This document shows, in pieces, positions 25,293 to 56,385 of a stretch of DNA of 64,000 nucleotides; positions within the stretch are counted from its first letter, which is position 1, and the number at the start of each line of letters is the position of its first letter. The DNA comes from an uncultured Gammaproteobacteria bacterium (GTDB lineage Bacteria > Patescibacteriota > Microgenomatia > UBA8517): positions 162,173 to 226,172 of the forward strand of contig CAYRUS010000001.1 of the NCBI GenBank assembly GCA_964427735.1, read 5' to 3'. A program made the translations under genes and the position numbers. The notes beneath the pieces are model-generated. The model was not told the origin of the DNA and ran no database searches. It saw only the letters and a program-made list of their open reading frames with translations.

Positions 25293-25295
25293 AAA

Positions 25296-26063
25296 TTAAA
25301 CAACATCAGCAAAATAAACTGATTTTTTCTTAAAGTAAATATATCCAAAAATAAATATAATCAAAGAAAATCCAGTTGCATACAAAAACGATTGAGTAGA
25401 TGGGGGAAGTCCATACAATACAGTATTTCTATAAGCATTAATAATTCCTGACATTGGGTTAAGATTAAAAATCATTCTGTATTCGCCAGGCACAAGCTCT
25501 GGCGGGTATAGTACAGGAGAGATATAAAGCCACATAGTTATAAATACTGATATTACATTTTCAACATCTCTAAAAAAAACATTTATAGCAGATAGTATAA
25601 AAGATATTCCAATGATCAAAAGAAGTTGGATAAATAAAATAATAGGAACCCAGAGAACTGTAAGGTGTATTGTTACACCAAATGCAATCAAAATTGCCAC
25701 TAAAATTAATATTGATAAAAGAAAGTCAATAAACTTTGCAAATATAGAGGCCAAAGGGAATACTTCCCTTGGAAGTCTGATTTTTGTAATTAATGTTGAG
25801 TTTGCCACAAGACTACCGGTTGCATAAGTAATAGCATTAGCAGTAAAAAGCCAAGGCACAAGCCCAACAAATAAAAATACAGGATATGGTGTTCCCCCTG
25901 TTGGAATCCTCACTAAAAATGAAAATACGACTGTTAGCACTATTAAATTGATTAATGGCACTAAAATAACCCAAGCATAACCCAAAATTGATTGTTTGTA
26001 CTTAGCTTTAATTTCCCTTTTTACGAGCTCAATTAAAAGTTCTTTATAATTTGCGGCAAACAT
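25296..26063 (-). CDS. ABC-2 type polysaccharide exporter permease (Wzm/TagG-type)
   Basis: 255 aa with 6 TM segments, N-terminal ELVKREIKAKYKQSILGYAWVIL ABC-2 signature, immediately upstream of the ATPase. Confidence 0.8.
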   Translation of the reverse strand: MFAANYKELLIELVKREIKAKYKQSILGYAWVILVPLINLIVLTVVFSFLVRIPTGGTPYPVFLFVGLVPWLFTANAITYATGSLVANSTLITKIRLPREVFPLASIFAKFIDFLLSILILVAILIAFGVTIHLTVLWVPIILFIQLLLIIGISFILSAINVFFRDVENVISVFITMWLYISPVLYPPELVPGEYRMIFNLNPMSGIINAYRNTVLYGLPPSTQSFLYATGFSLIIFIFGYIYFKKKSVYFADVV

Positions 26064-26096: not shown

Positions 26097-27371
26097 TCAC
26101 ACTATTTTTCTTAATTTTGACAAAAGATACTTAACATCAAAATTAAACATCATAAAGAAAAACAAAGAAATCAATAATCCCAAATTAGTGAAGATCGAGA
26201 CATAAATAATTTCTGAAATGTTAGAATTAAATATCATAATCCCTAATGCCTGGACAATAGCCGCTGAAAACAAGATATAGGCAGATTTAGTTTTATTCCT
26301 GGATATTAAATAGCTAACTGTATAAACATTTAATGCAAAAAGTCCTGCAAAAATACTGAAGATCAACAGATAAGGAGTCGCCTCCATAAATTCTTTTCCA
26401 AAAAGTATACCCACCGAAAATTCAGGAAATAATACATAAATTGCCATTACTACTAAAACAATAAATAAGGTAAAACCAAATCCCAACAAAAATAACAAAC
26501 CAGAAGGTTTGTTGCTTGAGGCTTTTTTACTTACCATGGGAAAAACAACGCCAATAATCGGATTTGCGCCAAAATAGATCACTTTACCCATTGCTGACAA
26601 TGCCGCATAGATACTTGCCTCATGCAAACTTAAAAAATATTTAGCCAGAATAATATCTGTTGAAAACATCGAAGTTAAAGAAAGTGTCATTATAAAAATC
26701 GGTAAAGAATAAGATAAAATATCCTTTTTAAAAAATATTTCAACCTCACCTTGCTTTATACCAATATCTTTTAGAAATTTCTTACTCATAAGAATTGACA
26801 CTATTATTGAAAATATCCAAGCAACAATAATCCCAAAGAGATTGAACCCTAAATAAATAAACATTATTCCAAAAGTTATTCTACCTAACCAGCCTAAATT
26901 ATTAATAAAAACACTTTCTTTGAATTTTAATAACCCTTGTAAAAATGAACTGTTCACCATTACATAAAATGACAAAACTATAATGAACGGAATAAGCAAA
27001 GCAATTCTATGATCAAGGTTGAGAAATTGTGCAAAAAAAGGTGAGACAATCAACAAAAAGATTAATAAAAACCCACTCCAGAAAAGTGATTTTTTTATTA
27101 TCCAATTATAAAACCTTGACACTTCATCCATATCTTTGCTTGAAACAATTTTTATTATCACAAGACTAAAAAATGTAAACAAAGAAGTTATTAAAGCAAC
27201 TAAAGATATAATAGCAGCAAGCTCTCCATATCCATCTTTACCCAAAATTCTTCCAAAAATAAGATGATATAAATACCCCAAAAAGTTAGCAAAATTTGTT
27301 CCTGCGATCATCAAAGCACTGCTTGAGAGTAAAGGATTATTTAGTACATGTTTAATTTTATCCTTAGGCAT
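26097..27371 (-). CDS. Wzx-type oligosaccharide flippase (MOP superfamily polysaccharide biosynthesis protein)
   Basis: 424 aa with about 12 TM segments. N-terminal LMIAGTNFANFLGYLYHLIFGRILGKDGYGELAAIISL, typical of Wzx/MurJ-like flippases. Confidence 0.65.
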   Translation of the reverse strand: MPKDKIKHVLNNPLLSSSALMIAGTNFANFLGYLYHLIFGRILGKDGYGELAAIISLVALITSLFTFFSLVIIKIVSSKDMDEVSRFYNWIIKKSLFWSGFLLIFLLIVSPFFAQFLNLDHRIALLIPFIIVLSFYVMVNSSFLQGLLKFKESVFINNLGWLGRITFGIMFIYLGFNLFGIIVAWIFSIIVSILMSKKFLKDIGIKQGEVEIFFKKDILSYSLPIFIMTLSLTSMFSTDIILAKYFLSLHEASIYAALSAMGKVIYFGANPIIGVVFPMVSKKASSNKPSGLLFLLGFGFTLFIVLVVMAIYVLFPEFSVGILFGKEFMEATPYLLIFSIFAGLFALNVYTVSYLISRNKTKSAYILFSAAIVQALGIMIFNSNISEIIYVSIFTNLGLLISLFFFMMFNFDVKYLLSKLRKIV

Positions 27372-38180: not shown

Positions 38181-39809
38181 TTAATTTATCTCAGTAACTA
38201 TCATCGCTGGTTCGTTGTCTATTGAATATATAATGCTATTATAATTAGTCACATAATCTTTTTCGTTTATTTGGCCAATATACAAAGTATTTGAAGGCTG
38301 GTTTTCAAGAAAGACATTAATCTCACTTCTTGGAGTAGAACCTATATAAACATTGCCATATTGTAAAAACTCATGTCCATTAATAACAGAAAGATCGTCT
38401 TTATTAATTACAACTACTGGATCAATTTCAGAATACACACGATAGGCAGGTATTATACTTTCTATGCTTGATGAGAGGATTATCCTATCGTAATTACCCT
38501 TATTTTCATTGGCATAAACTGTTGCAATTTCAGCATGCTTAGCCCAAAATTTTGATTGTATAACAGGCTCGACAAAATAAAATCTCGCTAATGCTAAAAT
38601 TAGCTGAGATATTAATAAAAATACTGCAAAATAACCAATCAACCTGTAATTTTTAGATAAGTAGTAAAAACCCAATGATGACAAAATCGTTATAGCAGGA
38701 AACATGAATGAGTTTCTTAACGCATGCTGATCTAACATAAAAGCAGTTGCTATAGGAGTTATTAGTATCCAAGAAAATATTAAGATCGACAATTTATTCC
38801 TCTTTTTGAACATCAAATATATTCCTAAAAATATGGTTATTATTTCTACCCAATAAAACTCCCCCATTGATGTCATGTTGTGACGAGGATTATTGTCTCC
38901 TTCAGTAAACAAAAATCCAATTGAAAAGTTACTCAAATATGACCTTAAAAAGACCATTGAATACTCAATAACTCTATTATGAAAAAGCGGGTCGATAAAC
39001 TCAGGTAGATTATTGCTTATCCTCTCGTAGTTCACTTTTTCAACAATCCTATTGTTAAGAGCTTGGTTACTAAAAATATTTTGATTCAAAAATCTCTCTT
39101 CAGAACCTGCAAATAAAGTTTGATGAACAGATAAAATACCTGCAATTAATAAAATAAAAATTGAAAATATTACCTCTAATTTATATTTACTAACTAATTT
39201 TGTAACTTCCTTTTTGTAAACCACAAAAATAACAATTAACAAAATGGGTAAAGTTAACTTGTAAACAGGATAAGTATGAATAGCTAAGCCCCAACTTATT
39301 GCCCAAATGTATAAGTATTTAATGTTTTTTTGTGATTTTAGTAAAGAATATAAACCAAGTAGAGATAGAAACAATGCAAAATGGGCTTCATAACCACCTC
39401 TTGATAATGATAAGCTCCACAATGAAATTGATGAAAAAGCTGCAGAAATTATAGCCACCTTTTCACTAATAAATTCTTTTACAAAAAGGTATGTAATAGC
39501 TATTATCCCAAGGCTCGACAGTATAGACAAAAACCTAACACCTAGAGCAGTAGGTCCGAATAAATATACAAAAGGTATTGAGAAATATACATAACCAGCA
39601 GGTCTCCCTGCACCAGACGAAAATGTTAATGGCAAAAGCTCTCCAAACTGATCTTTACCGGTTTTTAGAATTGAATAAGCATCATATGCAATAGTTAGTT
39701 CATCTCCATATAAAGATAGTTCAGTAACTTTATAGAATCGAAGAACAGCAGAAAATAATAATATTAAAACTAATATTTTATATTTACTCATTTGCGGATA
39801 CAGGTCCAT
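38181..39809 (-). CDS. GT-C membrane glycosyltransferase, PMT/ArnT-like (tandem paralog 4 of 4, most divergent)
   Basis: 542 aa; ELSLYGDELTIAYDAYSILKTGKDQFGELLPLTFSSGAGRPAGY. Confidence 0.65.
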   Translation of the reverse strand: MDLYPQMSKYKILVLILLFSAVLRFYKVTELSLYGDELTIAYDAYSILKTGKDQFGELLPLTFSSGAGRPAGYVYFSIPFVYLFGPTALGVRFLSILSSLGIIAITYLFVKEFISEKVAIISAAFSSISLWSLSLSRGGYEAHFALFLSLLGLYSLLKSQKNIKYLYIWAISWGLAIHTYPVYKLTLPILLIVIFVVYKKEVTKLVSKYKLEVIFSIFILLIAGILSVHQTLFAGSEERFLNQNIFSNQALNNRIVEKVNYERISNNLPEFIDPLFHNRVIEYSMVFLRSYLSNFSIGFLFTEGDNNPRHNMTSMGEFYWVEIITIFLGIYLMFKKRNKLSILIFSWILITPIATAFMLDQHALRNSFMFPAITILSSLGFYYLSKNYRLIGYFAVFLLISQLILALARFYFVEPVIQSKFWAKHAEIATVYANENKGNYDRIILSSSIESIIPAYRVYSEIDPVVVINKDDLSVINGHEFLQYGNVYIGSTPRSEINVFLENQPSNTLYIGQINEKDYVTNYNSIIYSIDNEPAMIVTEIN

Positions 39810-39875: not shown

Positions 39876-41873
39876 GTGATAAAATGTTTATACAATAATA
39901 GTATAATGGATATCATACTAACATACCTACTTTTCCCTGTTCTATGCCTATTGTTATTTATTGGAACCGGGTTACTATTACTTAAATACTTGGGTAATAA
40001 CAAATCTTATTCTTTAGAATCTATAGTTTTTGGCACTGTAATCGGGTATGTAGTGCTTAATTTAGTAGCATATTTTTTTCTAATACTTCATATTTCTTTT
40101 TGGATAATTCCATTTGGAATCGCCTTATTGATTTATCTTAATAAAGACATTTTCAACAAAATTAAAATTAATAAAACCATCTCAAGACTTGATCTTATTT
40201 CTATTGCAGTTTTTATGATTGGGGTAATTTTTCAGCTTTTAGTCATAGCTCCTAGTGGAATCACTAAAAATGGCGATTTACTGTTTTGGAGCTCTCATGG
40301 TCATGATGCAACTTGGCATATAGCTGTAATGAATAAAATTGCGGAAGGTTTTCCATTAGAAAATCCCATCTTCTCTCTAGAAAGACTTTATAACTATCAT
40401 TATTTTTTTAATATCTTGCCTGCCATATTTATGAAAAACTTCAACCTTTCTGAGATTGAAATGTACTTTCGATTGTTCCCTTTACTTTTCAGTATTCTTC
40501 TTGGCAGCACAGCATATTATCTAGGTAAGAAAGTTGGCAAGTCGCAAACGGCAGGCATTTGGAATATGTTTTTTGTATATTTTGTCGGAAGCTTTGGCTA
40601 TATAGCCACCTTAATAAAAGATGGTATAGTCGGAGGAGAAAGTATTTTCTGGGCTTCACAGGTTCATAGCTCTATTGGAAACCCACCTCAAATCATTTCA
40701 AATTTTTTGGTTTTGTCTTTTCTATATTTTATATTTGACTATTTTAATACCAAAAGAAAATCAGACTTTATTTTCTGTGTTTTAATTGCCTCAGTATTAC
40801 CTGTATTTAAGGTATATGCAGCAGTTATAGTTTTCCTTTCTTTAGGTGTTATAGCAATAATTCGTTTAATCACAGTAAAAAATTTTGATATTTTTGTAAT
40901 GACATTCATTTCTGCTCTCTTTGCAGCTGTTTTGTATTTGCCAAATACCCTGTCCTCAGCATCATTTTTAATTATTGAACCATGGTGGTATATAAGAACT
41001 ATGATTGTCTCAGAAGGACGTCTAAATTGGATTGATCACGAATTAAGAAGACAGACTTTCCTTGCTCATAACAATTATTTGAGGGTAATCCAACTAGAGT
41101 TAATAGCTTTTGTCATTTTTATAGTTGGAAACTTAGGAACACGAATAGTCGGATTAACTTATTTTATTAAAAATATTAAAAAATTCTTTGTAGATAATTT
41201 TTATGCACTATTAACCATGATTGCTACTTTTTCAGTTGTATTACCTTTGCTGTTTTTACAAAAAGGAGTAGTAAGTAATACTGCTCAATTTCTTCAATAT
41301 TTTTTGTTGACTTTTGGTATTGCTGCTTCGATTTCTATTGACGAATTACTTAAAAAAGTAAAACAAAGTCAGGCAAAAGCCGTAATAGTCCTAATACTAA
41401 TATTTATTTCTGCACCAACACAAATTGGATTGTTATTTGATTTTTACCAGAGACCTGCATTTGCTAAAGTATCAAAGCTAGAGTTAGAAGCTTTAAATTT
41501 TACGAAAATGAATTCTGCTGATTCTGATGTAATTATAGTCCCCTCATACGACCCACATACAAATACTGATGAAGAAACACCGCCAATCTGGGATTGGTTT
41601 GATACTTCGTATGTTTCCGCCTTTGCAAAAAGAAGTGTTTATTTTGCTGACTACGAGCAACTGGATATAATGGGCTATGACTTTAATGAAAGAAAAGATC
41701 TAGTAGAAAAACTGTTTAACACTAACTCCCCATCGGAGTTTGACACTTTGTTCAAAAAAAGTGGTTCTAGCATATTATACTTTCCTAAAATGATGCGTCC
41801 CGATGTATTTCTGCCAATGACTAGTTTAGAAAAAAAATATGAAAATGATGAAGTAGAAATATGGTCTTATTGA
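39876..41873 (+). CDS. Large polytopic membrane protein, unassigned family with GHDAxWHIA motif (paralog of 54619..56385); candidate novel GT-C-type transferase or polymerase
   Basis: 665 aa. SSHGHDATWHIAVMNKIAEGFPLENP after TM2. Conserved C-terminal YVSAFAKRSVYFADYEQLDIMGYDFNERKDLVEKLFNTNSP, aligned with YVSAFTKKPVYLEDEVNLTIMNYPWQERREKLDEFLKDSNSP in the partner. The real start may be the ATG at 39906 (MDIIL...). Confidence 0.5.
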   Translation: MIKCLYNNSIMDIILTYLLFPVLCLLLFIGTGLLLLKYLGNNKSYSLESIVFGTVIGYVVLNLVAYFFLILHISFWIIPFGIALLIYLNKDIFNKIKINKTISRLDLISIAVFMIGVIFQLLVIAPSGITKNGDLLFWSSHGHDATWHIAVMNKIAEGFPLENPIFSLERLYNYHYFFNILPAIFMKNFNLSEIEMYFRLFPLLFSILLGSTAYYLGKKVGKSQTAGIWNMFFVYFVGSFGYIATLIKDGIVGGESIFWASQVHSSIGNPPQIISNFLVLSFLYFIFDYFNTKRKSDFIFCVLIASVLPVFKVYAAVIVFLSLGVIAIIRLITVKNFDIFVMTFISALFAAVLYLPNTLSSASFLIIEPWWYIRTMIVSEGRLNWIDHELRRQTFLAHNNYLRVIQLELIAFVIFIVGNLGTRIVGLTYFIKNIKKFFVDNFYALLTMIATFSVVLPLLFLQKGVVSNTAQFLQYFLLTFGIAASISIDELLKKVKQSQAKAVIVLILIFISAPTQIGLLFDFYQRPAFAKVSKLELEALNFTKMNSADSDVIIVPSYDPHTNTDEETPPIWDWFDTSYVSAFAKRSVYFADYEQLDIMGYDFNERKDLVEKLFNTNSPSEFDTLFKKSGSSILYFPKMMRPDVFLPMTSLEKKYENDEVEIWSY

Positions 41874-41874
41874 T

Positions 41875-42546
41875 TTAATCCTGGCTTTTCCAAATGAAAA
41901 TTATTAATGTTATTATTAACACAGCATAAAACACCACGAATTTTGTATCAAAAATAAACTGATTAATAAAATCTTTATACACACTAGATATTAGATCAAA
42001 TTTACTTTCTGGTTTATAAATTGGCAAAATTGACAAATTACCATCAATTTTTTCTTGGTTATAAAATAAATCACTCATCCACCTCTTAAGTTCATTTGAA
42101 TAAAAAATCTGAAGAGCGTTAAGAGAATTAGATGTTGGAGAATTAATTCTTATTTCATACCATTTATTTTCTGATTCAAAAATCGGCTCAAATCTAAATT
42201 GTACAAATTCTCCGTCAGGAATATTGAGCCCATTTATATGTGATGATCTTATTAAATTATCATCTTCATAAAGCTCTAAATATATATTTTCATTATTTCT
42301 AAAATTCGGGTTTTTAATACTAGTTCCAAAGCCAATAAGGTTATTTTTGTCTGAATATATTACTTGTTTGATTTGATTGTCTTCATAGACATCTAAAGTT
42401 GCATCCAAACTAGGCTGTGAATGCAAATAAAAAGCATCAAGAGTAAATAAAATACTTATTGGAATTATTAAAATAAAAAATGCTATTAAAGTAACTGCGT
42501 ACAAAAGTACTTTAGTTTGTAATTTTTTCATTTTTGTAACATACAA
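41875..42546 (-). CDS. Hypothetical bitopic membrane protein (N- and C-terminal TM helices, central domain of about 150 aa)
   Basis: 223 aa; N-terminal VLLYAVTLIAFFILIIPISILF and C-terminal FVVFYAVLIITLIIFIW hydrophobic segments. Same topology as 9350..9910. Confidence 0.4.
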   Translation of the reverse strand: MYVTKMKKLQTKVLLYAVTLIAFFILIIPISILFTLDAFYLHSQPSLDATLDVYEDNQIKQVIYSDKNNLIGFGTSIKNPNFRNNENIYLELYEDDNLIRSSHINGLNIPDGEFVQFRFEPIFESENKWYEIRINSPTSNSLNALQIFYSNELKRWMSDLFYNQEKIDGNLSILPIYKPESKFDLISSVYKDFINQFIFDTKFVVFYAVLIITLIIFIWKSQD

Positions 42547-43732
42547 AGACAGTCAATAAACCCACAATAAACAAAATAATTTTTACTAAGTTTGTCAACA
42601 ATCCAACATCCATAATCTTACTAACAAATATGTATGGGTATGAAGCCTGATGAAATATCTGACTAATCGGAGTTAGCAAAGAAACACTTAAATATCTGTC
42701 GTTTATTAAAAGTGGCGCAACAAAACTCAAAATCATAATAACAAGAGAAGGTGCTATATATTTACTATTTCTAATAGTTAGAATAATGAGGAATGGCAAA
42801 AACCACAAGATCCACTGAATATGATAATCAACCATAGTAACTAAAAGTAAAGTTGATGACAGAAAAAATAACCAATACCCTTTAATTCTATTAATGTATA
42901 GATACAAAAATGCTATCGAATAAACTATCAAGTAATATGGAATTTTCTTGGGTAAACCGATATCTACTCCGTGTTCAAAAATCCGATTTGTTAATCCAGA
43001 AGAAAGAGAAGCATTAAAAAAATCACTACCCATAAAAGGAAGTAATATTAAAACAAATACTGCTAGCGATACTACAAAATTTATTAATTGATTCTTGAAT
43101 TTTCCCTTTGTTAAGAAAAGTACAGGAAGCAATAAAATTGGATATGCCTTAATACCCGCTCCTATAGCCAAAGACAAACCAGCGTGCAAACTCTGCTTCT
43201 TTTTTAGAAACAATAATGAAAGTATTGTAAAAAAGACAGCTAAGATATCAATGTTACTATAAAAATAAATAATAGCTATACTAAAAGGATTAAATAACCA
43301 AAAGGTAAAAGCCAACTCTTTATTCCTCTTCTTCTCAAACAATTTATAAATTAAAAATGCAATGAAAAGATCCAAAAAAAGATATGGCAACTTTAAGACA
43401 AACAGATATCTATATAAATAGTCTGTATTCTCTCCATTAAGCCAATGATAGAATTCTGAACCTAAAAATGGACTAACCACAAGCTGATAGGTTCCTAAAA
43501 AAAGATATGCAAGAGGAAAATATACAAACTCTTCTTTAAAGTGATGATTTTCTTTATTATCTTCTAGATAAGAATATATGTTAATTACTCCTGATTTTAG
43601 GTATTGTGATTGAGAATGATAAACTCTTATATCTGGGTGAAAGAAAAATGGCATTAATATAATTCTTATTAATATTGCCAGCAGCAAAAACCATCTAAGA
43701 GTTTTATTTTTTAATATTTCTTGCATTGTCAA
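42512..43732 (-). CDS. Polytopic membrane protein, possible GT-C-like transferase (DUF2029/GT87-like?)
   Basis: 406 aa with about 11 TM segments; N-terminal FFHPDIRVYHSQSQYL loop. Family assignment is tentative. Confidence 0.35.
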   Translation of the reverse strand: MTMQEILKNKTLRWFLLLAILIRIILMPFFFHPDIRVYHSQSQYLKSGVINIYSYLEDNKENHHFKEEFVYFPLAYLFLGTYQLVVSPFLGSEFYHWLNGENTDYLYRYLFVLKLPYLFLDLFIAFLIYKLFEKKRNKELAFTFWLFNPFSIAIIYFYSNIDILAVFFTILSLLFLKKKQSLHAGLSLAIGAGIKAYPILLLPVLFLTKGKFKNQLINFVVSLAVFVLILLPFMGSDFFNASLSSGLTNRIFEHGVDIGLPKKIPYYLIVYSIAFLYLYINRIKGYWLFFLSSTLLLVTMVDYHIQWILWFLPFLIILTIRNSKYIAPSLVIMILSFVAPLLINDRYLSVSLLTPISQIFHQASYPYIFVSKIMDVGLLTNLVKIILFIVGLLTVFVCYKNEKITN

Positions 43733-47040: not shown

Positions 47041-48756
47041 TTAAGTTTCTCTCTTTTTATAATAGATAAAAGTTAACATGATCATACTTCCGAGACTCAA
47101 AATATTTCCAACAGTCTGCGCTGTCGTATCTTCTAATCTGATTTCTACATTATGGTTTCCAGGTGGTAATTCAAAAGTAACCAGCCCTAGACAAAACTCC
47201 TGTTCTCTACAATCATCATTTATATGATCAATAACTTCTCCATCGGAATAAACTGTCATACCTGGAAAATCATATATAGGAGCTCTTATTAATGCATCCT
47301 CAGAGACATTTATTGGACCCATCTGATAGTTGCTACCTTTTTTATAACTACCTATTTCAGCATTTCCTTCAAGTATTTCTGGCTTTTCCGGAGCTTTTTC
47401 TATTGGAGGTAGATCTGCTGATTTGGGCAGATAATCAAAGATGCTAATTGTAAGTTGCTTTTCCCACAAGTTACCAGAAAACTTATCCGCGTCAGATATA
47501 TAATACCACTCTTTTACTCTGAAAAACCCAATATTTAGTAGGATTGCTAGGATAATAATTATTATTCCTATGATATATTTTTTAAAGCCGCCAAACATTG
47601 AGATACCCACGCCAGCTATGATTGGCAATAGAAATATGCTCACAGCCATAAAACGCCACGGAAACTGTAACCAAGCTAGAAAATGTAGTCTTTCCCATAT
47701 AAACATTGACCTTAGATGCATCAAAAATAAAGTAAATACTTCAAGTCCTAAAAGAAGCAATAAAAGTAGAGATAATTTTCTATTTTTGTTTATTTTGAAT
47801 AAGGCAACAATTCCTACAATTATCGCAAATAACCAATGAATATTTCCTGTTGATAAATTAAGAAGTTCATCTGGAAAGCCAGAAGACCCATATCCCCACT
47901 CTCGTGAAATAAACATGTCATACAGGTTTACGAAATGCTTTCTGTAATCAAAGTAACCCATCAACATAGTTTCTATATGCACATATTTTTGTTCGAGTAT
48001 TGCAGGAAGCACAAAATACGAAGCAAAACAAAAACCTAACACTCCACTTAGTACTATTTTGGGAAATACATCCTTCCACTTTTTTTCAGTAAACAACCAA
48101 TACAAAACCCAAAATAAGGAAGGAATAACAAATATTAGTGACATAAGACTATGTGTCATCAACAACAAACCAACTGATAATGAAAGCCATACAAGGTATT
48201 TATTTTTGTTAGTTTTTATTAGTTTATATGAAGACCAAAATATTAGTGGGAAAAACACTAAAGCCCAAAACTCACTCAAAGCTCCTCTTACATAAACCTC
48301 AACTGCTTTGTATGGAATATATGTATAAAATATTGCTGCAACAATTCCTTCCCATTTACCTGCAATCTCTTTAACTAAAATAAACATGGTTAAAGCTGAC
48401 AAAATATAACCCAACATAAAAAGTATCTTTACAGAATCAATAAACTGAAAGCCTAATAAATGAATTAATTCTCCGATGTAGTAAACACTAGGCGGATAAA
48501 AGTTAAACTGAGGGTATCCATACTGATATCCAGCATCCGGTACCCATCTACAGGGAATTTGAAAATCCTTGAAACATTCATGCATTTGATGAATCCTAAA
48601 TGCCTGAAGATCATCTTGCATAAAAAAATATCCACTCCTCATAAGCGGAATAAAAGAAGGAGATATGATCAAAATGATAAAGACTGTTGTCCAAGAAAAT
48701 CCCACTAACTTTATATAAGACTTTATTTTTTTTATTAGCTGCTGAGCTTTTTCCAT
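47041..48756 (-). CDS. YfhO-like GT-C membrane glycosyltransferase (tandem paralog 3 of 3)
   Basis: 571 aa; GYFFMQDDLQAFRIHQMHECFKDFQIPCRWVPDAGYQYGYPQFNFY; C-terminal YDFPGMTVYSDGEVIDH ... PPGNHNVEIRLEDT. Confidence 0.5.
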   Translation of the reverse strand: MEKAQQLIKKIKSYIKLVGFSWTTVFIILIISPSFIPLMRSGYFFMQDDLQAFRIHQMHECFKDFQIPCRWVPDAGYQYGYPQFNFYPPSVYYIGELIHLLGFQFIDSVKILFMLGYILSALTMFILVKEIAGKWEGIVAAIFYTYIPYKAVEVYVRGALSEFWALVFFPLIFWSSYKLIKTNKNKYLVWLSLSVGLLLMTHSLMSLIFVIPSLFWVLYWLFTEKKWKDVFPKIVLSGVLGFCFASYFVLPAILEQKYVHIETMLMGYFDYRKHFVNLYDMFISREWGYGSSGFPDELLNLSTGNIHWLFAIIVGIVALFKINKNRKLSLLLLLLLGLEVFTLFLMHLRSMFIWERLHFLAWLQFPWRFMAVSIFLLPIIAGVGISMFGGFKKYIIGIIIIILAILLNIGFFRVKEWYYISDADKFSGNLWEKQLTISIFDYLPKSADLPPIEKAPEKPEILEGNAEIGSYKKGSNYQMGPINVSEDALIRAPIYDFPGMTVYSDGEVIDHINDDCREQEFCLGLVTFELPPGNHNVEIRLEDTTAQTVGNILSLGSMIMLTFIYYKKRET

Positions 48757-49550
48757 TTTTGTCCTGACAATGATATAAGATATATCAGATAGTGTCCCAA
48801 CAAACCATGATAAATTTTACTAGAAGGAATTAACCGCTTCCACTGATCTTTACCTTTTGCTAAGTTTCTACCACTAGCTCCATGGTGATGAACCACAATA
48901 GACTTCGGGTTGTAAAAAACTTTGAGTCCTGCTTTGTGTACTCGCTTACAATAATCAAGATCCTCAAAGTACATAAAATACCTCTCATCAAGTAGACCAA
49001 CTTTTTTTATAGCTGTTGGTGTAATTAAAAATGCTGCACCAACCAAAGCATTTACTTCGACTGAGATATCACCCTCTGGAGCAAATTTACTAAAATATCC
49101 TTCCTCTCCAAACCAATACTCTTTTATTGCGTTTCGGATTGTAGGGAAAACAAAACACGATGGCTGAAGACTTCCATCACTATTTAAAAGCCTTGATCCT
49201 ACAACTCCTACATCCTTAGTGTTTTTAGCAAACTCTAAGAGCTCAGAAATTGCATTTGCTTTTATTTCAGTATCAGAATTTAAAAGAAATATATATTTTG
49301 ATTTCGCCTCTTTAATTCCAATATTATTTGCTTTTGAAAAACCAAGGTTACTTGAGTTTTTAATAAAGAAAAGATTCTTATATTCTTTTTCCAATTTCTC
49401 TAGTTTTTCTACGCTTTGATCATAAGATCCGTTATCAATAAGAATTATTTCAAAGTTGAGGTTTTTCTCACATTTGAATATAGACTTTACACAAGCTACA
49501 GTCAGTTCAGGTGTGTTGTAATTTACAATAATAATAGAAACATCTTTCAT
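48735..49550 (-). CDS. Glycosyltransferase family 2
   Basis: VSIIIVNYNTPELT ... IILIDNGSYDQS ... LLNSDTEI. Confidence 0.8.
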   Translation of the reverse strand: MKDVSIIIVNYNTPELTVACVKSIFKCEKNLNFEIILIDNGSYDQSVEKLEKLEKEYKNLFFIKNSSNLGFSKANNIGIKEAKSKYIFLLNSDTEIKANAISELLEFAKNTKDVGVVGSRLLNSDGSLQPSCFVFPTIRNAIKEYWFGEEGYFSKFAPEGDISVEVNALVGAAFLITPTAIKKVGLLDERYFMYFEDLDYCKRVHKAGLKVFYNPKSIVVHHHGASGRNLAKGKDQWKRLIPSSKIYHGLLGHYLIYLISLSGQKWKKLSS

Positions 49551-49553
49551 ATT

Positions 49554-50447
49554 TTAATTTCTAGATAATAATGCTTCATCTGATAATTTTGATTCTCTTT
49601 TTTCTATCCTCCTCCTTTTCCAAATAACAGGTAACTTTGGCAAAGCTAAAAGAACTACTTTTATATATCCGGGGTGCCTTATTAGCCTATTTGCTAGTCC
49701 TTTTAGATGTTTCCTCATGATATTTGCACTTGTGATGTTTTTCCAATTAAACAGCAAGTGATTTCTTTCTTTTGTTAATGAAAGTTTTGCTTTTCTGAAA
49801 TTTTTTTCATTTATTGAAGATTCGTGTACATGGGTAACCTTGGCTTTAGGATCCCAAAGTATTTTGTATCCTCTTTTTAACGCTCTGTAAGACAAATCAA
49901 CATCTTCCCAGTAAAAAGGTTTGTATACTTCGTCATCAAACCCTTTTAATTTTTGCCATGTAGATTTTCTAAACACGGCGCTTCCTCCACTAGCCCAAAA
50001 TGATTCAACCCTCTCTTTAGATTTTTTTTGAGGCTCATGTATAATAAACCCATTCTCAAATTTTCCAGCAGAAGGACCATATTCTTGTTCGTTTAAAGAA
50101 ACTGCAAAAACTAAATTATTTGCAAAATGTTTAGTGATGCCTTTAAGGAAATCAGGGCATGGATTTACATCCTGATTTAAAACACACACTAAATCTCCTT
50201 TTGATTTTCTCACTCCTTCGTTTACTGTATAAGAAAAACCTTTATTTTGATTATTTGTAATAAGGATAACATCGTCCTTATAATTCTTTTTAATAAAAGT
50301 AGCAGAATCATCTGAAGATCCATCATCCACTAGAATAATTTCATCTATTTTATTTGATTTATTTTTCTTTGCTTTTATTAAATTTGGAAGATTTTTCTCC
50401 AAATGTTCTCTACCATTCCATACCGGAATAACTACTGATATTTTCAT
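49554..50447 (-). CDS. Glycosyltransferase family 2
   Basis: ISVVIPVWNGREHL ... IILVDDGSSDDS ... VLNQDV. Confidence 0.8.
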   Translation of the reverse strand: MKISVVIPVWNGREHLEKNLPNLIKAKKNKSNKIDEIILVDDGSSDDSATFIKKNYKDDVILITNNQNKGFSYTVNEGVRKSKGDLVCVLNQDVNPCPDFLKGITKHFANNLVFAVSLNEQEYGPSAGKFENGFIIHEPQKKSKERVESFWASGGSAVFRKSTWQKLKGFDDEVYKPFYWEDVDLSYRALKRGYKILWDPKAKVTHVHESSINEKNFRKAKLSLTKERNHLLFNWKNITSANIMRKHLKGLANRLIRHPGYIKVVLLALPKLPVIWKRRRIEKRESKLSDEALLSRN

Positions 50448-51469
50448 TTTGATATTTGTTTTACTTCTGCCTCGAATCTTTTATATTCATAAATCTTACT
50501 ACTTTCAACAGCTGATTCTATAATCTTTTCAACACTTAACTTTTTATTTATTATTTCCATAGTTTTATTAAACAAATCGTTCTTTTTCTTCCATAAAAAC
50601 CCATTTTCACCATCCGCTATTATTTCCTTATAGCCACCTGCACTATATACAACAGGTATAACACTTGCAGACATTGCTTCTACAACAGTTATTCCAAAAT
50701 GTTCAACTTTTTTTGGCTTCTTTTCTTCATTTATCTTGTAGCCTGCTGCAGACCAAAATATTTTTGCTTTTCCATATAAATCTTTTATTTGCTCAAAGTC
50801 AGGACTTTCTATAAATTCTATTGGATATTTACCTGCAACAACTTTAAGTTCCTCTAAATACTTCTTTGACCCTACTTCAGTTCCTCCTGCTAAGACAAGC
50901 CTCCAATCTTTTACCCCTAAATCTACTAATTTTTTGAATACATCTATCAATACATCCTGTCTTTTTTCTTGAGTAAGCCTTGAAAATCTACCAACATAAA
51001 GAATCAGGTTTTGCTTTCTTTTCTTTTTAAATTTATCAACATCAACCGGAGGATAAATAACTTCAGAATCAACTCCATATTCCTTGTCTATGAATCTTTT
51101 TGTAAAAAATGAATTACATACAACATGATTGATTCTAAACAGTTTCATTTTGTTAAACAAAGTCTTACCTTTAACATTTGTAAAGGGGAACTGAAAATGA
51201 AGAATATTATTTCTTGCCTTAAGCATTGGTATAGAACCATCACTCAACCAAAAACAAAGATCATAGCCATCTCCTCTGTTTATGCTTTCTATAAAATTCA
51301 ATCCTCTGAACTTTATCCCAAACCTTTTTTCAATTTTCTCACTAATATCAGTTTTCCACTCAATATCAACATCATAACCACAATCAGCCAATGCTTTTGC
51401 GAAGCATGCTGTGTAACGCTCACCACCACCCAAAGTGTCCCAGTATGGATTATATATTGCTGCTTTCAT
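50444..51469 (-). CDS. Glycosyltransferase family 4
   Basis: MKAAIYNPYWDTLGGGERY and EHFGITVVEAMSASVIPVVYSAGGYKEII. Same subtype as 21720..23267. Confidence 0.75.
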   Translation of the reverse strand: MKAAIYNPYWDTLGGGERYTACFAKALADCGYDVDIEWKTDISEKIEKRFGIKFRGLNFIESINRGDGYDLCFWLSDGSIPMLKARNNILHFQFPFTNVKGKTLFNKMKLFRINHVVCNSFFTKRFIDKEYGVDSEVIYPPVDVDKFKKKRKQNLILYVGRFSRLTQEKRQDVLIDVFKKLVDLGVKDWRLVLAGGTEVGSKKYLEELKVVAGKYPIEFIESPDFEQIKDLYGKAKIFWSAAGYKINEEKKPKKVEHFGITVVEAMSASVIPVVYSAGGYKEIIADGENGFLWKKKNDLFNKTMEIINKKLSVEKIIESAVESSKIYEYKRFEAEVKQISK

Positions 51470-51482
51470 AGACTTAATTTAG

Positions 51483-52244
51483 TTATTGCTTGTGTTGCAT
51501 CTCCCAGAGCTTTGCATATGACATAAATCTACTCCAAGATTGATATAAGCCATATATTATACCCTCTGCTCCATCTTTGTACCCTTTTAGTTTTATGATT
51601 CTATAGTAAGCTTCAGTAAAAATTATTCTCAAAAATCTCCACCATACCATTTTTGGATGATTACTTTTTAAAAGAAGCTCTGCTTCTATATTTGACCACT
51701 CGTTTGTTTTTTCAATCATTTCACTTATATTGTCGTGTTTTATATGTATTAAGGGCTGTTTTAAGTGCCCTAGTTCGCCATTAATTACTGGTTCTTCATG
51801 AAGCTTCCCTTCCCATTTTATTAAACTATCTTTTTTGTAAAATCTTTTAACATAATCCGGCCACCAACCTCCATGCTTCATTTCTTTACCTAAGATAAAG
51901 TTTCGTCTAGGTATGGCATATGCTGAGTACGGAACATTCTCACTTAATGATTTTATTTCTTGTTTTAGTAGGGGAGTGATACGTTCATCTGCGTCTAAAT
52001 AAAATATCCAATCACTCTTTGCTTCTTTCAATCCTTTGTTCCTCCAATCAGAAAAGCCACCCTTTGGATAGTCATAGATTTTTGCTTTATATTCTTTAGC
52101 AATTTTTTTTGTATTATCTACAGAACCAGTATCAACCACAATAATCTCACTAGCAAACCCGTCTAATGACTCTAAACACTCTCTTAGTTTATTTTCTTCA
52201 TTTTTAGTGATTATGATTACAGATATCTTTTTTTCATTTTTCAT
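51483..52244 (-). CDS. Glycosyltransferase family 2 (WPDY C-terminal subfamily)
   Basis: ISVIIITKNEENKL ... IIVVDTGSVDNT ... YLDADERI ... GKEMKHGGWWPDYVKRFYKK. Confidence 0.8.
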   Translation of the reverse strand: MKNEKKISVIIITKNEENKLRECLESLDGFASEIIVVDTGSVDNTKKIAKEYKAKIYDYPKGGFSDWRNKGLKEAKSDWIFYLDADERITPLLKQEIKSLSENVPYSAYAIPRRNFILGKEMKHGGWWPDYVKRFYKKDSLIKWEGKLHEEPVINGELGHLKQPLIHIKHDNISEMIEKTNEWSNIEAELLLKSNHPKMVWWRFLRIIFTEAYYRIIKLKGYKDGAEGIIYGLYQSWSRFMSYAKLWEMQHKQ

Positions 52245-53163
52245 TTACCCAACTCCCCTTGCCAAATTTACCTCGATAATAATCTTTTATTCCCTTTTTT
52301 TGCCACTTTCTACCTTTAATCAAAAAACGAATACTTTCTTTAAATAATGCAAATTTTGTTCTTAGAGTGGCATACTGTATACCAAACAACATTCGATTTC
52401 TACTAATAAAGTAGTCATTTAAATCACTTCCTATTCCTGAGCTTTGTGCCACTTTGTGCCAAACAACCGCATTCGGAACAAAAATAATATCTTTATCTAA
52501 GTTTTTAACACGCACAGAAAGATCTGCGTCTTCATAGTACATAAAATACCTTTCATCAAAATATCCAATCTGCCTAAAAATATCTGAGTGTACAAACATC
52601 GCTGCTCCGGTCGCAAAATCAACCGCAGTCATATCGTTATACTGACCATTATCTACTTCATCTACACCTCTATTTATTCCATAGACATTACTCCAATCAA
52701 TTACTCCTCCAGCAGACCAAATCACACGTCCTATTTCATTTTCTTTGTATCTATCCTTGTGGAATTCAAAACCAGGAGCAAAATATATCTTAGGAGTTAA
52801 AATACCTGCATTTGGATTAGCTTCTGCAGCTGATATTAAGTTTGTTATTGCTTTCTTTTCTATAACAGCATCATTATTTAATATGAATACATAATCTGCC
52901 TCATTCTCTACAGCATAATTTATTCCAACATTATTGCCTGCAGCAAATCCTAAGTTTTCGTCATTTTCTATAAGCCTAATATCTAAATCCCTGTTTCTTT
53001 CTATGTATTGCCTAATTGTGTCTTTTGACTCTTTTCTAGAATTATTATCAACAACTACTGCTGTTAACATAAAATCTTTCAGAGGTATTTCTTTTATACC
53101 TTTGAGACAGTCTACGGTATCGGCTTCCCGATTCCAGTTTAAAATTACTACGAAGACGTGCAT
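52234..53163 (-). CDS. Glycosyltransferase family 2
   Basis: VFVVILNWNREADT ... AVVVDNNSRKES ... ILNNDAVI. Confidence 0.75.
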   Translation of the reverse strand: MHVFVVILNWNREADTVDCLKGIKEIPLKDFMLTAVVVDNNSRKESKDTIRQYIERNRDLDIRLIENDENLGFAAGNNVGINYAVENEADYVFILNNDAVIEKKAITNLISAAEANPNAGILTPKIYFAPGFEFHKDRYKENEIGRVIWSAGGVIDWSNVYGINRGVDEVDNGQYNDMTAVDFATGAAMFVHSDIFRQIGYFDERYFMYYEDADLSVRVKNLDKDIIFVPNAVVWHKVAQSSGIGSDLNDYFISRNRMLFGIQYATLRTKFALFKESIRFLIKGRKWQKKGIKDYYRGKFGKGSWVNEK

Positions 53164-53221
53164 GATATAAAGTGTAAAGGTTACAAATTAAAATTTAATA
53201 ATAAGTAGATCATAATTGTAG

Positions 53222-54121
53222 TTAACTCAGCTTATATTTCCTTTTTATTCTATTTATTGTACCTCCTTTTTCTTTTAAAAGTGTATCTGCATACCAATAA
53301 TTTGCATCCTTTTGAACCTTTTTCAATTCAGTAATAACCTCATTCAGTTCAATATCTTTTTGTTTTAAACCTTGGAGTTCCCAAATCTTAATATATTTTG
53401 TTGCTTCAGAAATCATCTGAAATAAAGCTAAAACTAACCCATAAACTCCATCTTTATATCCTTTACCAAAAAAATACCTACTGAAAAACTCTTGGGCAGG
53501 TTTAGTTACTAAATCTTGCCATTTAAATAGATACCCCTCATAAACTAAGTCTTTTGCCTGATGATTTGTGTATCTATCCATTCTATTTATAAACTGAGAG
53601 ATGGAGTTGTAATGGTAATGAACAATAGCTAAGTCTTCTTTTGCCTCTATATCCCCACCTTGACCTATTGTCTCTGGGACAGAATGAATAACATGACTCC
53701 AGTTAACATTACCTTTTTTGAAAAAACGAATATTGTAATCTGGCCACCAGCGGGAATGCTTTATCCATTTTCCAAAAATTATATTCTTTCGCGGCAATGC
53801 CCAATAATCTTTTGCACCCTCATCTGCAATCTGGCGAAGCTTTTTTGATAGTTTTATAGGTATTCTTTCATCAGCATCTAAAATTAATATCCAATCTCCT
53901 TTTGATTTTTCTATGGCAAAATTCCTAGCAGGCTCTACATATCCCATTCGTTTGTGCATATATACTGATGCTCCCTTTTTTTCTGCAATCTTGGTAGTTT
54001 TATCATCTGAGTGCATATCAACAACTACTATTTCATCCGCTAGCTTTTTTACGGAATCAATAGCATCTGCGATATTATCTTCTTCGTTCAAAGTGTTTAT
54101 AACTACTGAAATTTTAGCCAT
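53222..54121 (-). CDS. Glycosyltransferase family 2 (paralog of 16039..17022)
   Basis: ISVVINTLNEEDNI ... IVVVDMHSDDKT ... YVEPARN ... ILDADERI ... NIIFGKWIKHSRWWPDYNIRFFKKG. Confidence 0.8.
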   Translation of the reverse strand: MAKISVVINTLNEEDNIADAIDSVKKLADEIVVVDMHSDDKTTKIAEKKGASVYMHKRMGYVEPARNFAIEKSKGDWILILDADERIPIKLSKKLRQIADEGAKDYWALPRKNIIFGKWIKHSRWWPDYNIRFFKKGNVNWSHVIHSVPETIGQGGDIEAKEDLAIVHYHYNSISQFINRMDRYTNHQAKDLVYEGYLFKWQDLVTKPAQEFFSRYFFGKGYKDGVYGLVLALFQMISEATKYIKIWELQGLKQKDIELNEVITELKKVQKDANYWYADTLLKEKGGTINRIKRKYKLS

Positions 54122-54124
54122 GAT

Positions 54125-54622
54125 TTATTGTACACTACTCATAGAATTTATGACCTTCTGCAATTCATCATATACATTTTCAGAAGTTAGGTTAGTAGTA
54201 TCAATGGAAAAATCAACTTGTTTTTTCTGATATGCTTTTGCAAGAATATCCTTATAAAGTAAATAATTCCTTTTGAATCTATCTGCCTTTATAGAATCTC
54301 CATCTCTTTTTCTCTTCCTTTCAAGGAGGGTGTTTTCATTTGCATGCATTTCGATTATAAAAAAGTTATTATTCTTTAATATCTCAATTTGTTCCAAATC
54401 CAAAAACGAAATAACAAACAACAAATTATCTTTATCGATTATACGCCTAATTGATTCTTCGAATAGTTCATCTATTATTTCTTCTTCCTCTGGCCAAAAA
54501 TCACCATTTAATTTATAAACAAGATCATCCGCCTCTATTAGTTCTAAATTAAAAGCTTCAGCCAATTTTTTTGCTATTGTCGACTTTCCTGATCCTGTAA
54601 TTCCAAGCAAAACTATTTTCAT
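54125..54622 (-). CDS. Small P-loop NTPase, shikimate/gluconate-kinase-like fold (kinase-like; paralog of 58907..59410)
   Basis: 165 aa; Walker A LLGITGSGKST; IEADDL after beta-2; LERKRKRDGDS LID-like segment. Embedded in the GT gene run with 4-bp overlaps on both sides. Confidence 0.55.
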   Translation of the reverse strand: MKIVLLGITGSGKSTIAKKLAEAFNLELIEADDLVYKLNGDFWPEEEEIIDELFEESIRRIIDKDNLLFVISFLDLEQIEILKNNNFFIIEMHANENTLLERKRKRDGDSIKADRFKRNYLLYKDILAKAYQKKQVDFSIDTTNLTSENVYDELQKVINSMSSVQ

Positions 54623-56385
54623 AAAACTTCATAAATTATCACTTCTTCATTATCAAAAATGTTATCGATCCTAAGCGCGTTTTCATCTAGCCCAACTCCC
54701 GACCTCTTAACTAAGTAAATGTAATCTATTTCTTCATCACGCAGAAAAGCAAATCCTTCTGGAGAATTGCTGTCTTTCAAGAATTCATCTAGCTTCTCTC
54801 GTCTTTCTTGCCATGGATAGTTCATGATTGTTAAATTAACTTCATCTTCCAGATATACAGGCTTTTTTGTAAATGCTGATACATAGGCTGTAGAGTCATA
54901 CATAAACAAAGGCTTTGGTGCTTCTGCCTCGCGACCTAAGTAATTCATTCCAATAGGCTGAGCTGACAACACGATCCCCTTCGGCTCTTTTTCTAAAAAT
55001 TTTAATGCTTCAATCTCATAATTAGAAATTTTAGCCGGAGGAGTATTGGTGTAATAGTGTCTTATCGTAGTAAGAGTTGTCGGCAAGGTAAGGAGTATTG
55101 TTAAAATGGTAAAAATCTTACCAAAATTTGAGTTAATTTGGGTCAATAATTTTATAAGCTCAGGCATAGCAACCCCGGCAAGAAGACCTGAAAAAAACAA
55201 TGAATAATAAGTAAACTGAATAGTGTTCCAGGCAGTGCCACTTTGCACAAATAATATTGGGACAACTATTCCTGCTAATATTACTGTGCCAATAAACACT
55301 TCTATCCAACCTAGTTTTCTAAAATTTCTTATCCAATTAACTATAGCTAAACTACTCACTACCCTTGTTCCAAGGTTACCAAACCAAAATATTAAAAATG
55401 CGAAAATGTAAAGAATTAACGCTTTATAAATAATTCCACCCTGCCTTGTTGTAAGCATTGCCCTAGAGTACCAATCCCAATGCAACCTATCTCCATAAGT
55501 CATCAAGCCTTCTAAAAACCAAAATGGTGAATAAGATATTAATCTTCCTGAACTTGGAATAACAAAAAACATTAATATCGCCACAAATAGTGTACATCCA
55601 AAAAGATAGAGAAAAATCCTGCTTTTCTTCTTAAGCCACAAATAGATACTTGTAACAAAAAGTCCTGTCAGAACAAGCAATCCAGCATAAATTTTTATTT
55701 GGATAAGTAAACCAAATAAAATTCCAGCTATTATAATTTTTTTAAACGCTATCTTTTTGATATTTTGAATTATTAACATTCCTAACAATAAAACAACAAT
55801 AGACAAGGCAAAAGGCGGATTAACCAAGGTTGTGGCAGATGACTGAGCCCAAAACATAGAATCTCCTCCAAGCCGACCATACCGAACCAAATGTACCAAC
55901 CACCCCCAACCACCACCAAAGTAAACAAAAAAAACTGCCCAAAAAGCAGCAAGGCTTGACTTAGTCCAACTATAAACAAATTTATAAGAAAAAAGACCAA
56001 TTAAAAAAGCAAACACTGGTGGCAAAACTTGAAAGTACAAAAACCTAACAGGAATAAAAGTAATTTTATGAAGCAAAGCAACAAACACGTCAAAACCAAT
56101 ATGGTAATTTTGTAAAGTAAAACCTGATAAAACTGGTATCTCAGTGGATCCCCTTGATAAAGACTCAATTAATGCAATATGCCAGACAGCATCATGACCG
56201 TGAGCTCCCCAAAACCCCATTCCATATTTATAAATCAATCCACTTTTTATAGTTGTTAAATACCATATAAAAGTACCTATAAAAATAAGCAGCAAGGCTT
56301 TTTTGTCAACTTCTTGAAATAAATAATTTAGTACTTTTTTTAACATCTTCCTTAATAGATGAACCCACAAGAACAAGTATTGCAC
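54619..56385 (-). CDS. Large polytopic membrane protein, GHDAxWHIA family (paralog of 39876..41873)
   Basis: 588 aa; WGAHGHDAVWHIALIESLSRG and the conserved C-terminal YVSAFTKKPVYLEDEVNLTIMNYPWQERREKLDEFLKDSNSP. The start is probably the internal Met at 56346 (MLKKVLN...), which reduces the overlap with the upstream flippase gene. Confidence 0.5.
   Translation of the reverse strand: MQYLFLWVHLLRKMLKKVLNYLFQEVDKKALLLIFIGTFIWYLTTIKSGLIYKYGMGFWGAHGHDAVWHIALIESLSRGSTEIPVLSGFTLQNYHIGFDVFVALLHKITFIPVRFLYFQVLPPVFAFLIGLFSYKFVYSWTKSSLAAFWAVFFVYFGGGWGWLVHLVRYGRLGGDSMFWAQSSATTLVNPPFALSIVVLLLGMLIIQNIKKIAFKKIIIAGILFGLLIQIKIYAGLLVLTGLFVTSIYLWLKKKSRIFLYLFGCTLFVAILMFFVIPSSGRLISYSPFWFLEGLMTYGDRLHWDWYSRAMLTTRQGGIIYKALILYIFAFLIFWFGNLGTRVVSSLAIVNWIRNFRKLGWIEVFIGTVILAGIVVPILFVQSGTAWNTIQFTYYSLFFSGLLAGVAMPELIKLLTQINSNFGKIFTILTILLTLPTTLTTIRHYYTNTPPAKISNYEIEALKFLEKEPKGIVLSAQPIGMNYLGREAEAPKPLFMYDSTAYVSAFTKKPVYLEDEVNLTIMNYPWQERREKLDEFLKDSNSPEGFAFLRDEEIDYIYLVKRSGVGLDENALRIDNIFDNEEVIIYEVL

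Follow-up and report, generated by a model that had tools for sequence, protein, structure and literature searches.

What do two large, related membrane proteins contribute to a gene cluster that is given over almost entirely to the making of glycans? The question is raised by a 64,000-nucleotide stretch of contig CAYRUS010000001.1 (positions 162,173 to 226,172; ~31% GC; hereafter the window), nearly the whole of which is a glycan-biosynthesis super-locus carried mostly on the minus strand. Two of its genes, here called A and B (coordinates in Table 1), encode proteins that a preliminary description had reported as paralogs of an unassigned family and as candidates for a new class C glycosyltransferase (GT-C) or glycan polymerase. 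We find that A and B are very probably GT-C glycosyltransferases and that they form a new family inside this known fold class, for which neither Pfam (2025) nor NCBIfam (June 2026) holds a model.

Two paralogs in the GT-C fold class

Both open reading frames (ORFs) are present as first described, and, judged by their sequences, A and B are paralogs beyond doubt, with 30% identity over 591 aligned residues (BLASTP, E=1e-65). The C-terminal block that had been said to be common to them, comprising YVSAF[AT]K..VY, IM[GN]Y, ER[KR] and NSP, is likewise seen in the BLASTP alignment. No third paralog was found in the window when A and B were compared by BLAST with all of its ORFs. The database copy of A (P0001, 655 aa) begins at the ATG of M11 at 39906, and that of B (P0121, 575 aa) at the ATG of M14 at 56346; residue numbers for A and for family positions are counted here from M11 of A. 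As read from the translations, the shared motif is encoded at 40296..40325 on the plus strand in A (HGHDATWHIA) and at 56173..56202 on the minus strand in B (HGHDAVWHIA). The motif had been placed near the second transmembrane helix, but it actually lies in the first extracytoplasmic loop, after core helix 1; in A, three extra N-terminal helices make this helix the fourth.

An AlphaFold2 model of the A-type protein, built from a 59-sequence alignment spanning both subfamilies, reached a mean predicted local distance difference test score (pLDDT) of 90.5 and a predicted template modeling score (pTM) of 0.92. In this model, the core runs from one helix through a 68-residue outer loop, six helices, a 43-residue outer loop and four helices to an outer dome. 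Together with the short inner loops, which are rich in Lys and Arg, the modeled helices give a 1-6-4 topology of 11 core helices with the C terminus outside. B consists of exactly this 11-helix core and the C-terminal dome, with its N terminus in the cytoplasm, and A of the core, the three additional N-terminal helices and a C-terminal alpha/beta dome. D134 sits 20 residues past core helix 1, and the general GT-C model has an acidic residue in the first extracytoplasmic loop, soon after the first membrane helix (PMC6801728). The 1-6-4 arrangement with 11 helices is that of PMT, ALG9 and ALG12, while STT3 and DPY19 have a 1-8-4 arrangement (PMC6801728).

When the model was compared with the PDB by Foldseek, the membrane domain resembled solved GT-C enzymes, and the closest matches were human STT3 (E 1.2e-9), Caenorhabditis elegans DPY19 (E 1.4e-9) and Archaeoglobus fulgidus AglB (E 2.8e-9), followed by the yeast and human oligosaccharyltransferases (OSTs; E ~1e-8) and PglB (E 1.4e-7 to 2.5e-7). 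AftD, the next family, was matched at E 1.8e-3 and Pmt4 weakly at E ~0.07; transporters appeared only at E>0.2, with TM-scores of ~0.1. The list of fold relatives carries the figures STT3B 19.9, AglB 18.2, ALG12 18.1, ArnT 17.6, PglB 16.8, AftA 16.7 and Pmt4 15.5. The C-terminal alpha/beta domain of the family matches the core unit ("CC" domain) of AglB. The family is demonstrably homologous to GT-C enzymes. The earlier proposal of a new GT-C family is borne out by the Foldseek matches near 1e-9 to STT3, DPY19 and AglB and by a 96% profile match to PMT_2 paralogs encoded in the window (see below), and in no comparison were the proteins placed confidently in a family outside glycosylation. According to the model, the family appears structurally nearest to OST and DPY19, yet it lacks the sequence features that define GT66. 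The earlier exclusion of OST consequently holds for GT66 membership (no WWDYG, no STT3 match in Pfam, 11 helices rather than 13), but OST is the closest structural relative, including in its C-terminal domain.

The two other families with a related dome differ from A and B in several respects. The dome fold is common to Emb, AftD and DPY19, and OST and DPY19 have been argued to have a common ancestor (PMC10154233). DPY19, a tryptophan C-mannosyltransferase (GT98), has the conserved module and a luminal dome in common with the family; however, it is eukaryotic, has 13 helices, uses dolichyl-phosphate mannose in a metal-independent reaction and has no sequence similarity to A or B, and counterparts of its catalytic Glu71 and of its WxxW sequon reader were not identified in the family. 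The mycobacterial arabinofuranosyltransferases AftA, AftB and AftD and EmbA-C (GT53, GT85, GT89 and related) also have extracytoplasmic domains, including a dome-like core, and, as in the window, many paralogous GT-Cs serve one envelope glycan. In contrast to A and B, these enzymes are much larger and carry carbohydrate-binding modules, use decaprenyl-phosphate arabinose as the donor and have no link to Wzx; there is no sequence relation between them and the family.

Conserved residues and range of the family

Conservation was scored over 142 non-identical sequences from GTDB loci, with a cutoff of at least 93%. The residues above the cutoff are D134, W137 and H138 (HDxxWH); N163-Y164-H165 and D169; G244-E245, F248-W249 and Q252; N259-P260-P261; K302; P359 and W361; G408-N409 and R413; Q452, N458 and Q461; and E526, Y569 and Y625. 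K302, Q452 and Q461 are present in all 142 sequences, D134 in 140 (the two exceptions are gaps), H165 and E245 in 140 each and H138 in 139. R372 falls just under the cutoff as Arg and is Arg or Lys in 139/142. Two histidines and an aspartate had been singled out for such a check: D134 and H138 proved near-invariant, but H133 is conserved only to ~89% (His in 72/79 A-type and 52/61 B-type sequences, otherwise Arg or Phe), and the first His of "HGH" is not conserved. In the model topology, all residues above the cutoff face outward, in outer loops or at outer helix ends, with the exception of R413, which lies deep in a long helix. HDxxWH and NYHxxxD are located in the first large outer loop, GGExxFWxxQ in an outer loop among the six central helices and PWW...R in the second large outer loop. 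The resulting family signatures (HDxxWH, NYHxxxD, GGExxFW, NPP, FKxY and PWW) differ from the motifs of GT66.

At the sequence level, a profile of the family matched the ten PMT_2 proteins of the window in hhalign with a probability of 96.1% (E=3.1e-9), aligning A' 187-348 with PMT_2 89-227 over core helices 2-7. Under relaxed settings, D134 fell opposite the Asp of "DE", a PMT_2 motif of the first outer loop (posterior 0.5-0.7); in its place, the family has "HD..WH". Like the family, PMT_2/ArnT-type enzymes (GT39/GT83-like, PF13231) have the conserved GT-C module and an 11-helix 1-6-4 core and are encoded in the same locus. The family differs from them in a ~20-residue insertion in the second outer loop (GGESxFWxxQ...NPP) and in its OST-type C-terminal domain. 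This remote homology apart, the family models agree with the earlier remark that A and B could not be placed among GT39/GT83, YfhO, Wzy or WaaL proteins. At E<=1, neither protein matched PF13231 or PF02366, which the ten neighbors in the window do match, or STT3 (PF02516) or YfhO (PF09586); there was neither a match to the O-antigen ligase model PF04932 nor fold similarity to Wzy, WaaL or SEDS.

The description of the family as unassigned also stands. Pfam-A gave no match for A or B even at E<=1; NCBIfam at E<=1 gave none for B and, for A, a single chance-level match (E 0.022; 14.6 bits against a cutoff of 217 bits). Searches of PDB sequences with phmmer and with a 59-sequence profile in hmmsearch yielded nothing for B and, for A, chance-level matches only (best E 0.36), and a profile of the C-terminal domain alone matched only homeobox proteins in the PDB sequences (E>0.3). 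A word-indexed search returned 444 relatives of A and 1073 of B, all unnamed or "hypothetical", with no precomputed Pfam assignment except one PF01757 entry on a relative of B, and the clusters to which A and B belong supplied neither a name nor an accession for them. An exhaustive profile search of 1.84 billion cluster representatives gave 1913 at E<=1e-3, of which 1015 were at E<=1e-30, and 412 family loci were obtained from a scan that took one genome for each GTDB species. No description of the family was found in the literature on GT-Cs, glycosyltransferases and oligosaccharyltransferases of Microgenomates, Patescibacteria and Woesebacteria.

The informative organism labels of the relatives are Woesebacteria, Daviesbacteria, Microgenomates and Patescibacteria, together with one Parcubacteria label and one label of a Clostridia metagenome-assembled genome (MAG). 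The known range of the family is so far limited to candidate-phyla bacteria of the Microgenomates type (Woesebacteria, Daviesbacteria and relatives). Dozens of TPA_asm MAGs titled "uncultured Gammaproteobacteria bacterium" (L008, L011-L013, L018 and others) carry a Microgenomates-type locus, with 45-48% identity to A, as do the Clostridia MAG (L076) and the Parcubacteria MAG (L039). Since the same locus recurs in these assemblies, the Gammaproteobacteria label looks like a placeholder, and the Clostridia and Parcubacteria titles likewise look like placeholder or wrong taxonomy. This new family combines a PMT-type 1-6-4 core with an OST-type dome and has its own set of motifs and a narrow phylogenetic range.

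Within the family, 78 A-type and 63 B-type sequences separate cleanly, with a mean identity of 31% between the clades and of 44-48% within them. On these sequence grounds, the A/B duplication is judged to be older than the split between Woesebacteria and Daviesbacteria. Of 64 B-type proteins, 40 have an extracellular domain of ~450 residues N-terminal to the core (for example, L004 15516..18953 and L005 15372..18836, and P0242, P0256 and P0280); it is not encoded in B or anywhere else in the window. A model of this domain (pLDDT 91.9) matched 3lm3, a putative glycoside hydrolase/deacetylase (DUF3863), at E=1e-17, followed by CE4 peptidoglycan/polysaccharide deacetylases and GH57 enzymes, and there were weak sequence matches to DUF3863. 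The domain has an acidic pair, of which D138 is invariant and E75 nearly so, and no conserved pair of histidines. From its fold, the domain is predicted to act on glycans, a prediction that favors a glycan over a peptide as the acceptor or product.

Coupling of B to Wzx and the proposed role of the pair

The gene order around B points to the step in which it may act. In the window, B is flanked upstream by a Wzx-type flippase gene that overlaps it and downstream by six soluble-type GT2/GT4 genes, and synteny was counted over 82 loci from other species. A same-strand Wzx gene lies directly upstream in 49 of the 60 B-type genes with an identifiable upstream neighbor, the commonest gaps being -4 and then -8 nt, and in one database protein, P0280 (1639 aa), Wzx, the N-terminal domain and the B-type core form a single chain. 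The downstream order GT2-GT2-GT2-GT4-GT2-GT2 recurs in other genomes, and these genes are presumed to be the cytoplasmic assembly line of a lipid-linked oligosaccharide. The linkage of B to Wzx and the soluble glycosyltransferase genes is thus tight and ancient. Because B is translationally coupled to Wzx and heads the operon of six soluble GT2/GT4 genes, it is most likely the consumer of the flipped oligosaccharide.

The two paralogs lie within 10 kb of each other in 55/82 loci. In 26 loci, the A-type gene immediately follows B on the same strand; it is oriented against both of its neighbors in 45 cases, as in the window, and is codirectional with both in 30. In line with the preliminary description, A is among the few plus-strand genes of the window, almost every other gene being on the minus strand. 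The convergent neighbor of A encodes a 223-residue protein (h223), whose two ends each form a hydrophobic helix (residues 18-36 and 194-212) and whose middle, judged from the sequence, appears rich in beta strands. A homolog of h223 adjoins the A-type gene in 42/80 cases, usually convergently. By analogy, its topology with two terminal helices recalls the polysaccharide co-polymerases.

Considering fold and synteny together, it is probable that A and B are previously undescribed GT-C glycosyltransferases that face outward and transfer polyprenyl-linked glycans, with B consuming the oligosaccharide flipped by Wzx. The donor would be a sugar or oligosaccharide on undecaprenyl (di)phosphate taken at the outer face of the membrane; a polyprenyl-phosphate-linked donor is suggested by the Wzx, GT2 and GT4 neighbors. 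D134, together with H138, H165, D169 and E245, would activate the acceptor and/or hold a metal, K302, R372 and R413 would hold the phosphate, and the glycan would be passed on to an extracytoplasmic acceptor. B is proposed to consume flipped undecaprenyl-diphosphate-oligosaccharide and to transfer it en bloc to the final acceptor, possibly with polymerization; such an en bloc role is plausible, if slightly short of an even prospect. A might carry out a second transfer of this pathway, not redundant with that of B, or form a heterodimer with B, and the Emb proteins, which act as paralog dimers, provide a precedent for such a pair. The acceptor is more likely to be a cell-envelope glycan than an Asn sequon, because WWDYG is missing and B-type proteins are often fused to a domain of glycan hydrolase/deacetylase fold.

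Several observations weigh against this proposal. The PMT_2 class is the only one to which the family has a significant sequence-level relationship, and the locus contains at least ten GT-C genes of this class, whose members normally use monophosphate-linked single sugars. The corresponding hhalign comparisons with PglB were not significant, at 9% for Campylobacter jejuni PglB and 31% for a shallow profile of 16 PglB sequences. In an alignment of low confidence, Gln461 seems to replace the Arg with which PglB binds the pyrophosphate of its donor. The dome, being common to Emb, AftD and DPY19, does not on its own imply en bloc transfer. Family scans detected no initiating phosphoglycosyl transferase in the window, and A lies 12.7 kb from Wzx there, the coupling to Wzx being limited to the B-type. 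A also has Asn at position 169 (40410..40412), where 137/142 relatives, including 76/79 of the A-type, have Asp; this substitution may be a functional change of that copy. Beyond fold and synteny, the role of A and B, including donor and acceptor, is one that we infer.

The main rival, which we regard as possible but clearly less probable, is that A and B transfer single sugars stepwise from undecaprenyl-monophosphate donors onto a growing extracytoplasmic glycan, as PMT_2, ArnT and Aft enzymes do, the adjacency to Wzx reflecting only a shared pathway. The PMT_2 homology, a core layout that is that of PMT, ALG9 and ALG12 and not of the 13-helix OST, the packing of the locus with PMT_2-type enzymes and the Gln at the position of the PglB Arg (subject to the same low alignment confidence) all speak for it. 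However, the conserved B operon contains no GT2 with C-terminal membrane helices, as found in GtrB/DPM1-type synthases of monophosphate-linked sugars, all six being of the soluble type, and stepwise transfer would leave the Wzx product without a consumer in the conserved module. Most genomes also have B overlapping Wzx, and one protein is a fusion of the two. Foldseek, moreover, favors OST and DPY19 (1e-9 to 2.5e-7) over AftD (1.8e-3) by approximately four orders of magnitude or more. The same fold matches, to STT3B, AglB and PglB and, for the C-terminal domain, to the AglB core unit, would fit highly divergent members of GT66 (STT3/AglB/PglB) that modify Asn in N-x-S/T sequons of surface proteins. 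GT66 proteins also have an acidic residue in the first outer loop and a C-terminal alpha/beta domain, and in the pgl and agl loci their genes, like B, stand beside a flippase for lipid-linked oligosaccharides and soluble glycosyltransferases. The only hhalign alignment to PglB covers the structurally equivalent segment, namely the last helices and the outer domain's first strand, and stops precisely at WWDYG. The C. jejuni query is 99% identical to database PglB, and the profile is shallow because the top 120 PglB relatives were all from Campylobacter. WWDYG opens the outer domain of PglB and reads the +2 Ser/Thr of the sequon; opposite it, the family has a gap in the hhalign alignment, and the equivalent residues are a variable x-P-[YF]-[DN] ("AQPIG" in B of the window). 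Since WWDYG is absent, A and B are not GT66 OSTs. GT66 has 13 helices (1-8-4) and a Glu in external loop 5 (EL5), whereas the family has 11 (1-6-4), and no conserved Glu was found in the EL5-equivalent loop of the family alignment. With the lack of any STT3 match in Pfam, these differences make N-linked transfer very improbable.

An alternative that retains the flipped oligosaccharide is that one or both paralogs replace Wzy and polymerize the repeat units flipped by Wzx into a long surface polysaccharide by means of a fold of the GT-C(A) type. The order Wzx, B and six soluble glycosyltransferases resembles a Wzx/Wzy-dependent locus, two paralogs could divide the roles of polymerase and ligase between them, the accessory domain fused to B-type proteins has a glycan-active fold, and the terminal helices of h223 give it the topology of a chain-length regulator. 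No homolog of Wzy_C was found within 10 kb of the family in the 82 loci, in a BLAST search with the window's own Wzy_C as the only query; since Wzy proteins are very divergent, this single query could have missed one. The apparently beta-rich middle of h223 does not look like a coiled coil, and no OST-like GT-C is known to polymerize diphosphate-linked repeat units. Replacement of Wzy is considered unlikely. A bolder form of the en bloc proposal is that A and B are a lineage-specific, OST-derived "oligosaccharide ligase" that in Microgenomates takes the place of Wzy/WaaL-type enzymes as well as of classical OSTs, with B transferring glycans en bloc to a surface protein or peptidoglycan without WWDYG and A acting as its obligate partner or as a second-step enzyme. 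We consider this doubtful; if true, the bacterial en bloc glycan transferases would gain a third class, not seen before, and there would be a first handle on the way in which these uncultured, host-dependent bacteria construct their surface. Finally, A and B might have no catalytic role and serve as a GT-C-fold scaffold or substrate-binding subunit, like PIG-U/GAB1 in the glycosylphosphatidylinositol transamidase, or they might be membrane transporters. Across the 142 sequences, neither clade varies in the acidic, His and basic residues that occupy the canonical catalytic positions of GT-C enzymes, and the transporter matches in Foldseek were as poor as given above, so that these possibilities are hardly credible.

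Candidate-phyla (Patescibacteria) cells are tiny, mostly uncultured and attached to hosts, and their surface glycans, which are likely to be central to their lives, are essentially uncharacterized. New GT-C families are no longer surprising in themselves, and a function for A and B is only proposed here; the interest of this family is that it is a conserved and duplicated core part of a very large glycan locus in a major lineage of Patescibacteria and that it joins two well-studied enzyme classes through its PMT-like 11-helix core and OST-like dome. It merits its own entry in Pfam or CAZy, for which HDxxWH, NYH, GGExxFW, FKxY and PWW could serve as signatures. If B does consume what Wzx delivers, this would define the last step of an envelope pathway in Microgenomates, and the enzymes that handle flipped lipid-linked oligosaccharides would extend beyond OST, PglL/WaaL and Wzy. 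Should the proposed role be right, comparative work, and possibly glycoengineering, would also gain an OST-like enzyme that lacks a sequon reader.

Further features of the window

In addition to A and B, the window encodes ten PMT_2/PTPS-type proteins as well as GT87-like and PIG-V-like GT-Cs (~16 GT-C-like membrane proteins overall), along with ~25 GT2/GT4 genes and sugar-nucleotide enzymes. The coordinates of the features discussed are collected in Table 1.

Table 1. Positions of A, B and other features in the window
Feature	Position	Strand	Remarks
A-type paralog	39876..41873	+	ORF of 665 aa from GTG 39876; probably 655 aa from ATG 39906 (M11)
H-D-A-T-W-H, first extracytoplasmic loop of A	40302..40319	+	Translation; contains D134 and H138
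B-type paralog	54619..56385	-	ORF of 588 aa from GTG 56385; probably 575 aa from ATG 56346 (M14)
H-D-A-V-W-H of B	56179..56196	-	Translation
Wzx-type flippase (Polysacc_synt_3)	56306..57790	-	Pfam E=2e-58; directly upstream of B, 3' end overlaps B
Six GT2/GT4 genes downstream of B	48735..54121	-	Pfam; without hydrophobic segments
Small P-loop kinase-like gene (AAA_18/SKI-like)	54125..54622	-	Between B and the GT2 genes
Second P-loop kinase-like gene (AAA_18/SKI-like)	58907..59410	-	On the other side of the Wzx-B pair
223-aa protein (h223)	41875..42546	-	No family match; convergent neighbor of A
GT87-like GT-C protein	42512..43732	-	Pfam GT87 E=1.2e-6; order A, h223, GT87-like conserved
PMT_2 GT-C protein	38181..39809	-	Pfam PMT_2 E=4.4e-8; divergent from A, conserved neighbor
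Second Wzx flippase of the window	26097..27371
ABC-2 exporter pair	24567..26063
Wzy_C protein	7041..8492		Far from A and B
Multi-helix ORF, 679 aa	17811..19850	+	No Pfam match; hhalign 89% to the window PMT_2 profile
Multi-helix ORF, 562 aa	14210..15898	-	No Pfam match; hhalign 82% to the window PMT_2 profile
Short ORFs inside or overlapping minus-strand glycosyltransferase genes	51125..51526, 53913..54230	+	Probably not genes

No tRNAs were found in a scan of the window, and a scan for promoters and terminators around A gave sites no more numerous than in shuffled sequence. In one related locus (L002), a 589-aa gene without a Pfam match lies between Wzx and the B-type gene; it was rejected as a member of the family (hhalign 28%). 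The two P-loop kinase-like genes encode proteins of 165 and 167 aa, which BLAST found only in the locus of the window's own genome and not in the 82 related loci, and the copy adjoining B looks like an insertion, specific to this lineage, that separates B from the GT2 genes. Given their hhalign probabilities against the PMT_2 profile of the window, the two multi-helix ORFs without a Pfam match are probably further divergent GT-C enzymes; they are not paralogs of A or B.

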